A stretch of 64,000 nt of DNA from a virus, in the IMG/VR virus record IMGVR_UViG_3300031133_000417, positions 970-64,969 of that record; one strand, 5' to 3'. The notes under the pieces were generated by a model, which saw only the letters and a program-made list of their open reading frames with translations, was not told where the DNA came from and made no database searches. The position numbers and the translations under genes were made by a program. Positions 6,515 through 23,528 of the stretch are shown one piece after another (the first letter of the stretch is position 1; each line of letters starts with the position of its first letter).

Positions 6515-7900
6515 TTATTGAGCAGCAGTAATCTTTGATGGTAATGCCGGGATAGCTTTTACAGCATCAGCATAGGTTTTATAGTAGATGTTATTTATTG
6601 AGGTTAAAGGAGTCACCACAGGATCATTCATCGGGTGAATACTGGTAGCAGGATCCTTTTCAGTATTGAAATATGCAAAGCCTGTATTATCGTGTACGTT
6701 GATGGTAGCATATGTATTGTAAGCCACAAACAGTACCCCTGCCCAATCTCCTGAAGTACTGAGTACACCGGCAAGGTTTCCATATGCTTCAGATGTTGCT
6801 ACACTAGCCCACTTCGGATACCTATCAATGAAGGTTTTCATTTCATCTGTAGTCTGTACCTCCAAAGCGCTGTACTTTCGGGAATTGTAAACGAAGTTAT
6901 TATACATGACCACCGACTTAACTACTGGACCGAAACTCATCGTCCTTGACCTGATCAGGTAGCCTTCATGATCAACCAGAGTGTTGTTGAAAACAGAGCC
7001 AGTGCCGTAGGCCATTATAATTCCGTTATCATTGTTGTTGATCGCATTGAGGTTGCTGAACTTGTTCCCAGAGAATACGTAACCATCACACGCTCCTAAG
7101 TAAAATGCCTGGGCTATGTTAGGACTGTTTTTGACTGTCGAATTCGTTATTGAGAAGTTCTTTAAAAGGTTCTTTACGCCTTTGGCATCCAGAGAAGCAT
7201 CAGATTGAAAACAGGTAGAAGTATTTTCAAATGTCAGTTTGTCAAACCTCCAGTTCTTAGCTGCAGTTGCATCTGTTCCATCCCAGTATGTCTGATTATA
7301 GTTACCTATTACATAGTTGGAAACATTCTTGAAGCTGATATCATGCAGGTATACATCATTACTCAGGCCATTGAAGTTGATGCAGCGGTATGGCTGATCA
7401 TGCATTGTGGCACCGAAAATCTCTAAACCACTTGCCACTGCAATATCAATGGCCCCAGACTGCATGTCCACTCCGGTAAGGTCAATCACAGAGTTTACTA
7501 CCTTACCTACATTCAGATAATTAAGTGTTCCCTTTGCAATGACTATCCGTTTGTTCGTAATATCTCCCAGAACAATCTGCTTATTTACCGGGATCACCAT
7601 ATTAATAACTGCACGGGTGTCTGTAGATGGGGAAGTCACCGGTGGCACAACAACCACAGGAGGAATCACTACAACGGGGGGAGTGACTACAGGCGGCACA
7701 ACCGGAATGGTAGCCGTTGCATACGCTTTTTTAAAGTCTGTACTGGCAATTGAAGGAACTGCTACCTTTTTGTTTGAGTAGATGATCCTCCCATCAGTTA
7801 CCTGATAAGTAATGCGTTTGCCGACATCAGTAATAGACCCGGTTTGTCCCACGGCCAGCAGGCTGCATGAGACGAGTAATAGCGTTAACAGCTTTTTCAT
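6515..7900 (-). CDS. Secreted right-handed beta-helix (pectin-lyase-like) protein
   Basis: Sec-type signal peptide, Pro/Val-rich linker, Asn-rich beta-helix-like repeats. Confidence 0.7.
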   Translation of the reverse strand: MKKLLTLLLVSCSLLAVGQTGSITDVGKRITYQVTDGRIIYSNKKVAVPSIASTDFKKAYATATIPVVPPVVTPPVVVIPPVVVVPPVTSPSTDTRAVINMVIPVNKQIVLGDITNKRIVIAKGTLNYLNVGKVVNSVIDLTGVDMQSGAIDIAVASGLEIFGATMHDQPYRCINFNGLSNDVYLHDISFKNVSNYVIGNYNQTYWDGTDATAAKNWRFDKLTFENTSTCFQSDASLDAKGVKNLLKNFSITNSTVKNSPNIAQAFYLGACDGYVFSGNKFSNLNAINNNDNGIIMAYGTGSVFNNTLVDHEGYLIRSRTMSFGPVVKSVVMYNNFVYNSRKYSALEVQTTDEMKTFIDRYPKWASVATSEAYGNLAGVLSTSGDWAGVLFVAYNTYATINVHDNTGFAYFNTEKDPATSIHPMNDPVVTPLTSINNIYYKTYADAVKAIPALPSKITAAQ

Positions 7901-21917: not shown

Positions 21918-22163
21918 TTATTGTTCGCCGTTGCGATCGGTAACGTCGTATGCTTTTTCATTGAAAAACCTACCTTCGACTTTAGAAAGGTGTTGATCAA
22001 TATCTTTCTCCAGCGTCAGGCCTGCCTCACGTTTTGATGACTTAAGCAATCCAACTGCGATCGCTTCATCCTGGTCAAAGCTGGCAGCGATACTAAGTGC
22101 TGCAGGTAAATTAATAACGCCATTAACGGCGGCGCTCCTCAGAGCAATTTGTAGTCTGTTCAT
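21918..22163 (-). CDS. Hypothetical protein
   Basis: 81-aa ORF within the operon. Confidence 0.65.
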   Translation of the reverse strand: MNRLQIALRSAAVNGVINLPAALSIAASFDQDEAIAVGLLKSSKREAGLTLEKDIDQHLSKVEGRFFNEKAYDVTDRNGEQ

Positions 22164-22184: not shown

Positions 22185-22380
22185 ACAAATAAACCGGGAT
22201 GCGTACACCCCGGCTTTGATCTCCCTCACATGGCTTACTGCCCCTTGCGACGATTTCGCTCGTCCTGCTATCCCGGTTCTACTTATGCCCGGGCTTCTCT
22301 CATCTGGAATTTGCGTTTGCCTTGCTTACCGCCTCTACACCCGCTTATGATCAATGCAGGACGTTTTCACAAGGGCTTTA
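22185..22380 (-). ncRNA. Candidate structured ncRNA with 3' terminator
   Basis: Long-range pairings CGTCCTGC/GCAGGACG and CCCTTG/CAAGGG, internal CCCGG/CCGGG stem, 3' CCGGG hairpin + TTTATTT. Confidence 0.5.
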
Positions 22381-22501: not shown

Positions 22502-22703
22502 TGAAGTTTATTTACTGTTTAAAAAGCAATGGGGCTACTGGGTCGCGGATCACGCTGCTGTCACCCCATTGTTGCTCTCGGTTAATCGACCTACCGATTC
22601 CAAACGGAGTACCTTGTGTACTCACCTGCATCTGATTTCTCCTAACGGCTATCAGCAAACGGACCTTAGGTTCTGCATACTAAAAAGCATGCTACCGACG
22701 GTG

Positions 22704-22776
22704 CGGAGAAGAAAGGAATCGAACCTTTGACCTGAGTGTTAACAGCACCCTGCTCTGCCTATTGAGCTACTTCACC
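22704..22776 (-). tRNA. tRNA-Asn (GTT)
   Basis: Cloverleaf: GGTGAAG/CTTCTCC acceptor (one U-U mismatch), anticodon loop CTGTTAA, T-loop TTCGATT, G73; no encoded CCA. Confidence 0.9.
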
Positions 22777-22918
22777 AAATAGCGGTCTTTCCCGCTGGTC
22801 ATTTCGTTTTACTATCCAAAACGACCAAAATCCAGACAGCTTCGTACTGACAAACCCGATACCCCTCGCTTTTTAGACAAAGGAGCCTTTCCTGATATCG
22901 GCTTACTTACGCTCCTTG

Positions 22919-22989
22919 CGCAAGTACAAGGATTCGAACCCTGATCAATGGTTTTGGAGACCACCATACTACCGTTGTACGATACTTAC
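22919..22989 (-). tRNA. tRNA-Trp (CCA)
   Basis: GTAAGTA/TACTTGC acceptor, anticodon loop CTCCAAA, T-loop TTCGAAT, G73. Confidence 0.9.
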
Positions 22990-23288
22990 GTGTTGCAGAT
23001 CCACACCTTACGACTTCTGCTTGCCGGTTCTCCTTATGTGATAGGAAAGGGTATTTATGACGATTAATTCCCCTCTATGATCATAATGAAAAGGATGCAT
23101 CCTAATTCGCCCAATGATCTAGACCTTTTTTCCATTCCCTGAGCCAGACGATCCGCTGAGTATTTCATCAGACTAACTAGCCTCTTGCTTGCGATCATTT
23201 TTGTTTTGCAGGAAGGAAATTACTTCTTTCGCTTTTCAAAAAGGAAGTGTGCGCCATCCGGCAACACACTTATCTAAACTAACGCTCG

Positions 23289-23362
23289 ATGCGGGGGGCG
23301 GACTCGAACCGCCGACCTGAAGGATATGAGCCTTCCGAGCTACCAACTGCTACCACCCCACA
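23289..23362 (-). tRNA. tRNA with CAT anticodon (Met/fMet-like, atypical)
   Basis: TGTGGGG/CCCCGCA acceptor, GAAGG-CTCATAT-CCTTC anticodon arm, GGCGG-TTCGAGT-CCGCC T arm; one extra base in the D stem. Confidence 0.85.
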
Positions 23363-23446
23363 TTTTATGTCAAAAAAAACAAAGCCACTTTCATGACTTT
23401 GTTATATCTCCCTCACTATTCCCATTGACATTTCAAACATAGAAAC

Positions 23447-23528
23447 ATTACCTTGTATTACCAAATGGTAATATACAATTTTATTTAAATCCTTGATTAT
23501 CAGAAAGAATAAATTACCAATAGGTAAT
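23447..23528. promoter_or_regulatory. Two ATTACC-N4-GGTAAT sites (23457-23472, 23513-23528) plus a phased half-site at 23447
   Basis: Direct sequence match; upstream of the tRNA/accessory operon. Confidence 0.7.

Follow-up and report, generated by a model that had tools for sequence, protein, structure and literature searches.

Which kind of gene, if any, occupies the interval between the tRNA genes of this phage and the protein genes that follow them? An earlier note had placed there an unassigned structured non-coding RNA of the phage, drawn as a rod of ~190 nt closed by two long-range helices and read as a possible 6S-like RNA or decoy. We analysed the interval within a window of 64,000 nucleotides (the whole stretch of DNA under study), which comprises nearly all of a 65.6-kb IMG/VR provirus record. 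The genes on the minus strand, read from high to low coordinates, begin with terminase, portal, head morphogenesis and major head protein and continue with connectors and a pair of tail-chaperone-like ORFs (24218-23757 and 23715-23542). There follow tRNA-Met (23288-23362), tRNA-Trp (22918-22989) and tRNA-Asn (22703-22776), all three called by ARAGORN and by the Rfam tRNA model, then the element, four small ORFs and an HNH endonuclease gene; past the latter a mixed-strand insert of ~5 kb precedes the tape-measure and tail-fibre genes. Since the nearest relatives of the element sit in Pedobacter prophages (P. gandavensis LMG 31462 and another Pedobacter genome), the most likely host of the phage is one of the Sphingobacteriaceae (Bacteroidota).

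The separate features described by the earlier note are all present on the minus strand of the window. The octamer CGTCCTGC (22363-22356) is complementary to GCAGGACG (22268-22261) and CCCTTG (22375-22370) to CAAGGG (22247-22242), the CCCGG/CCGGG stem is formed by 22293-22289 and 22276-22272, and a GC-rich terminal hairpin with a T-run lies at 22213-22187. A credible minus-strand ORF is lacking, as the note had stated, the sole one inside being a 23-codon frame that opens with TTG. The predicted fold (RNAfold) has an energy of -65.4 kcal/mol with z = -3.84, reached by none of 200 shuffles; with the terminator removed z is -2.56 and two of 200 shuffles are as good. In this sequence the 8-bp helix has a pair probability of ~0.99, and forcing a local hairpin (H2, below) in its place costs 4 kcal/mol. 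The window sequence taken alone is nonetheless only moderately convincing, because an isolated perfect 8-bp complement is expected ~0.3 times by chance within ~200 nt (an arithmetic estimate). The weight of the structural case is the conservation in relatives.

Relatives were located through the neighbouring 81-codon ORF (ORF81, 21918-22163 on the minus strand, ATG at 22163) and through conserved DNA words. Five independent ones were obtained: four IMG/VR phage contigs, namely L002 (the same copy in L003, L006 and L011), L004 (also in L014 and probably L007), L012 (also in L046) and L047, together with a Pedobacter gandavensis prophage, L005 (also in L009, at 2300-2470, and in L013). A further candidate from Pseudomonas (L010) was discarded as a spurious protein match. 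Looser DNA patterns gave no additional members in IMG/VR, and a two-mismatch pattern run over 401 Sphingobacteriaceae genomes returned the known prophage and otherwise chance-level matches that the covariance model rejected. This model, R1, was built for the core of the element and scores the six members at 90-126 bits, the next-best match across the sequences searched reaching 16.5 bits. A covariance-model search of 151 Pedobacter genomes yielded a single true copy and a reduced form (L049), the other two matches being chance ones in coding regions, and the element was not found in GenBank phages (INPHARED) by megablast and blastn. The family is real but narrow: six copies are complete, and one of these also occurs as a prophage in the genomes searched. 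The element matches no Rfam family at the gathering score or at E<=10, the models of GOLLD, ROOL and 6S RNA, Bacteroidota forms of the latter among them, included, and only tRNAs were matched. No cloverleaf was detected in it by ARAGORN or the Rfam tRNA model, which called only the three known tRNAs.

All six members have in common a core of ~120 nt (22304-22186 in the window, minus strand), within an element of 200-330 nt in total. The core consists of three hairpins, H1 to H3, joined by nearly invariant purine-rich linkers and followed by an intrinsic terminator. H1 (22272-22293) is the 5-bp CCCGG/CCGGG stem with a loop of 12 nt in the window and of 7-12 nt across the family; two of its pairs show double changes, and the stem is rewritten in L005, L012 and L047. 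The invariant linker ATAGCAG (22271-22265) leads to H2 (22249-22264), with a 5-bp stem (22264-22260 with 22253-22249) and a hexaloop that starts with invariant GCGAA. In H2 100% of the cells pair, with two double-change pairs in L012 and G-U pairs in three members. Beyond the conserved linker GCAAGG (22248-22243; GCAAG(R)G in the family) lies H3 (22232-22242), a 3-bp GGC/GCC stem with a variable loop of 4-6 nt and one extra pair in L047, which gives no covariation test because its stem is invariant. Between H3 and the terminator the purine motif GTGAGGGAG (22221-22229) is conserved, also in the reduced L049, and the purine stretch ahead of the terminator contains GTGAG family-wide. The terminator itself (22187-22213) is a hairpin of 8 bp with a 4-nt loop, followed by TTTATTT, and two of its pairs are changed on both sides across members.

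The alignment used for covariation (A5) comprises six sequences fitted to the structure model. In it 95.5% of the cells pair and six pairs are changed on both sides, which none of 500 shuffles equalled, and pairing halves when the partners slide by one column. RNAalifold recovered H1, H2, H3 and the terminator from A5 and extended the base of H2 by two invariant G-C pairs. With six sequences in a model-fitted alignment the covariation is modest but consistent, and on these comparative grounds we conclude that the element is a real, conserved and uncatalogued structured RNA motif of four hairpins. An antisense gene was also considered for the core and rejected, given that the plus-strand frames of 68 codons (window) and 60 codons (L005) read it in different frames.

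The same relatives decide against the rod as the family fold. Upstream of the core the window carries a variable 5' module (22306-22380, minus strand; it starts AAAGCCCTTG and ends GCAAGGCA) that holds both 5' arms of the proposed rod, 22375-22370 and 22363-22356, and is a paralogue of the one to three hairpin modules of the relatives. L002 and L004 have three such modules and the window one; L005 and L012 have one each, of a type differing from that of the window, and L047 has none. The modules open with AAAG-YCCT and close with a complementary AGG-CA, and the short one (module A) of L002, L004, L005 and L012 contains two covarying pairs. Two core sequences, GCAGG before H2 and CAAGG before H3, resemble the closing arms of the modules, which explains their pairing with upstream opening arms. 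In the window the single module presents CCCTTG and CGTCCTGC in nested order, and from this the rod arises. A 39-codon ORF just upstream (22501-22382) was dismissed as unrelated to the ORF at the corresponding place in L004.

The rod helices are present and thermodynamically dominant in the window, and a weaker nested version can be drawn in L002; in L004, L005, L012 and L047, however, the pairing sequences are either short, in crossing order or missing. For the inner 3' arm, the best complement upstream spans 8 bp in the window, 7 in L004, 6 in L002, 5 in L005 and 4 in L012, with none in L047, and in L004 the inner partner lies 5' of the outer one, so that the helices, if both formed, would cross one another. 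H2 uses as its 5' arm the GACG half of the inner helix, and two compensatory pairs support this local hairpin (22264-22249), which takes half of the 8-bp helix. In L012, the most divergent member, the H2 arm and its local partner are both changed at two positions while the upstream sequence is unchanged to match. The outer 3' arm CAAGGG is conserved even in members without CCCTTG, and L002 and L005 have an extra A inserted in it. The covariation of H2 and the weak or absent upstream partners indicate that the rod is not a family feature, and the long-range helix is at most a lineage-specific alternative state. A 6S-like RNA or decoy closed by two long-range helices is in our opinion highly improbable: no 6S-type model matches and the helices are not conserved. 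The resemblance to 6S RNA amounts to a similar length and a rod predicted in this window alone, whereas the central-bubble architecture is not present across members. What stands of the earlier proposal is a conserved, non-coding, terminator-ended RNA of the tRNA region; the rod and the function read from it do not.

The succession of repeated 5' modules, terminator and small ORF also has the order of parts of a type III toxin-antitoxin-like unit, in which ORF81 would be the small toxin. Unlike the RNA of ToxIN, the modules are not exact tandem repeats and are dissimilar in length and sequence, L047 has neither modules nor ORF81, and ORF81 has no PADLOC (defence), Pfam or PHROG match, so that we give this interpretation hardly any credence. 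AF2 predicts ORF81 to fold as a small bundle of helices, for which the PDB gave no significant match.

Conservation of the core was also compared with that of the neighbouring gene. Between the window and L004 and L005 the nucleotide identity of the core is 78-82% as against 58-61% for ORF81, whereas between L012 and L005 the core (68%) falls below ORF81 (76%). The latter comparison favours an unlikely explanation in which the element is functionless, a terminator joined to a relic of the end of the tail-chaperone gene and of an old intergenic region left by insertion of the tRNA cassette; that the apparent conservation would derive from recent recombination of phage modules is to be judged just as sceptically. 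The reduced form L049 speaks in the same direction. There the stop codon of the tail chaperone is followed immediately by the reduced form and then by ORF81, and tRNAs are absent; the GTGAG stretch and a near-identical terminator are kept and H1 and H2 are lost, so the terminator part can stand without these two hairpins. In the model alignment the last coding stretch of the L049 chaperone gene falls, with high posterior probability, on the 5' half of H1; part of the element may thus have originated as a copy of a gene end, duplicated on arrival of the tRNA cassette. The flanking of the cassettes by HNH endonuclease genes fits the relic explanation as well. Against it, H1, H2 and the terminator each contain double compensatory changes, a sign that pairing has been selected for, and the linkers are invariant though the neighbouring protein is only 46-52% identical.

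HNH endonuclease genes adjoin tRNA/element cassettes in two unrelated contexts (20887-20324, minus strand, in the window, and an L047 ORF ending at ~6713), which fits mobility of the cassettes by homing. The tRNA/accessory block of the window is inserted between the chaperone-like ORFs and the tape-measure gene. Near the 3' end of the 153-codon ORF 24218-23757 there is a slippery run, CAATCTTTTTTCG (23807-23795, minus strand), kept in L005, L012 and L049, and this ORF and the short ORF 23715-23542 look like a -1 frameshift pair of tail assembly chaperones.

Promoters were searched as TTTG/TAnnTTTG and not as sigma-70 hexamers, because the host is most likely a member of the Bacteroidota. A putative promoter of this type for the tRNA/accessory operon lies at 23434-23472 (minus strand). 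Its -33 TTTG (23465-23462) falls within an ATTACC-N4-GGTAAT palindrome (23472-23457), and a spacer of 20 nt separates it from the -7 box TATGTTTG (23441-23434); between 15471 and 28731 the minus strand has no other TAnnTTTG. A matching layout is found ahead of the first tRNA in L005, L012 and L002. No second TAnnTTTG box occurs between this promoter and the element, nor does one occur between the terminator and ORF81. Given that the only consensus promoter is located upstream of tRNA-Met on the same strand, the element appears to belong to the tRNA/accessory operon. Several terminator-like hairpins intervene between promoter and element, so that read-through must be common or internal promoters must depart from the consensus, and co-transcription with the tRNAs is for this reason not assured. 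A hairpin with a GAAAGA loop is found immediately 5' of tRNA genes in the arrays and, in L012 and L047, immediately 5' of the element, which puts the element in the position of an array gene. Sites of this hairpin, which may be a processing signal for 5' ends, are 22797-22780 (minus strand) in the window, 2195-2210, 2412-2427 and 2495-2510 in L002 and ~2440-2425 in L053.

Our preferred explanation, held tentatively, is that the element is a predicted stable small RNA that is transcribed along with the tRNAs and ends at its terminator, the latter also limiting expression of the genes downstream; on this explanation it is the last non-coding gene of the phage tRNA/accessory operon. Transcription would start at the operator-bearing promoter (23465-23434) and proceed through the three tRNAs and their spacers, and most transcripts would be stopped by the intrinsic terminator at 22213-22187. 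Processing of the tRNAs would then release a discrete structured RNA of ~120-200 nt composed of 5' module, H1-H2-H3 core and terminator hairpin. The working surface may be formed by the invariant single strands, that is ATAGCAG, the GCGAA of the H2 loop, GCAAGG and GTGAG, most likely for a protein partner, and only a fraction of the polymerases would pass the terminator into the genes from ORF81 through the HNH gene. We infer the discrete transcript, its action in trans and the partner. The explanation is supported by the R1 scores, by the covariation and by the higher identity of the core relative to ORF81 (window versus L004 and L005), and further by the absence of a second promoter box, the position of the GAAAGA hairpin and the independence of the element from one downstream gene. 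This independence is seen in L047, where core and terminator precede a small membrane-protein ORF in place of ORF81, and in three other genomes, where the element is absent upstream of more distant ORF81 homologues.

The terminator lies 25-45 nt ahead of the start codon of the first small protein gene in seven of seven loci, the reduced L049 included, and this constant distance also fits a cis-acting role. The main rival is therefore an attenuator, riboswitch-like or nut/boxB-like in form, in which the core, by binding a ligand or a protein of phage or host, sets the read-through into ORF81 and the accessory genes; we consider it possible, though rather doubtful. As in a terminator/antiterminator riboswitch, an intrinsic terminator stands directly before a gene in all relatives, and with no promoter box between terminator and ORF81 the downstream genes depend on read-through. 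The linkers and the H2 loop are invariant and the peripheral loops variable, as in aptamers, and three members (the window, L004 and L005) allow a pairing, at -10 to -14.6 kcal/mol, between the 5' arms of H1 and of the terminator. This alternative pairing is, however, weak or differently placed in L002, L012 and L047, the core has no closing helix, the riboswitch and aptamer classes of Rfam gave no match at E<=10, and the different gene downstream in L047 and the distant ORF81 homologues without the element also weigh against an attenuator. The nut sites of lambda (boxA-boxB) and the short terminated transcript PR'-tR' are cases of a hairpin and single strands ahead of an intrinsic terminator that gates phage genes. 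Like them, the element has, ahead of a terminator, a short hairpin whose purine-rich loop is conserved, as are the single strands on either side, but it is ~1.2 kb from the promoter instead of adjoining it, the host belongs to the Bacteroidota, and a NusG-like gene or domain was not found in the phage record.

Small RNAs of phage tRNA clusters have been known since T4, with roles still unexplained, and very little is known of RNA-based control in Bacteroidota phages. A precedent for the preferred explanation is the tRNA region of T4, which yields two small RNAs of unknown role, RNAC and RNAD (PMC3014915). Our element resembles them in being small, non-coding and encoded on the tRNA strand in a phage tRNA transcription unit; it differs in the phylum of the host, in ending with a terminator right before protein genes and in being known from sequence only. 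To our knowledge no relation in sequence or structure connects it with these two RNAs. GOLLD and ROOL are structured RNAs often found beside tRNA genes in prophages; both are large, ROOL having a mean length of 581 nt as well as multistem junctions and pseudoknots (PMC5737381). The element likewise is a structured RNA adjoining phage tRNA genes, but it has a core of ~120 nt with four simple hairpins and no Rfam match. What is new here is a narrowly distributed RNA motif, the general kind, structured RNAs of phage tRNA regions, being already known.

The element is compact and backed by covariation, and it is testable since one copy resides in a cultured, publicly held strain. Its natural variants act as deletion mutants: the count of 5' modules differs between members, and the reduced form lacks H1 and H2. 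Should the element gate read-through, it would represent a new class of attenuators; should it act in trans as a stable RNA, it would provide a tractable case for tRNA-linked phage RNAs. Its narrow distribution, with six full copies, limits the general reach of either. In a bolder and rather improbable version, the H1-H2-H3 core would be a new sensing gate of Bacteroidota phages that chooses between stopping and the accessory genes, or else a tRNA-array RNA that binds and blocks a host factor acting on tRNAs. As a gate it would bind a protein or a ligand while embedded in a tRNA operon, the stop coming after the stable RNAs.

Other non-coding features of the unit were observed alongside the element. 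A strong terminator-like hairpin with a T8 run occurs at 23416-23378 (minus strand), ~30-55 nt past the promoter and before tRNA-Met, and its sequence is nearly identical in L002, L004 and L012; a terminator so close to the promoter, ahead of the tRNA genes, suggests regulated read-through. A repeated signal of GTGAGGG plus terminator, considered on the basis of this leader, was abandoned as the motif is absent from the leaders of L002 and L012. The spacer 3' of tRNA-Asn (22640-22525, minus strand), which has ~35 nt in common with L004 (6500-6465) and a long T-run hairpin at its end (22555-22515), may be a further conserved non-coding element. In L047 a tRNA-like sequence (6760-6875, plus strand), called by neither ARAGORN nor the Rfam tRNA model, has a clear T-arm and a 7-bp acceptor-like pairing, and is similar in its 5' part to the element's ATAGCAGG...GCAAGG stretch. 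Finally, both ORF81 and the ORF after it are preceded in all relatives by a conserved AACA..TTTTAAAGCA-like stretch, 5-10 nt from the start codon (22190-22164 and 21915-21887 in the window, minus strand); it is probably a translation start signal that replaces the Shine-Dalgarno sequence.
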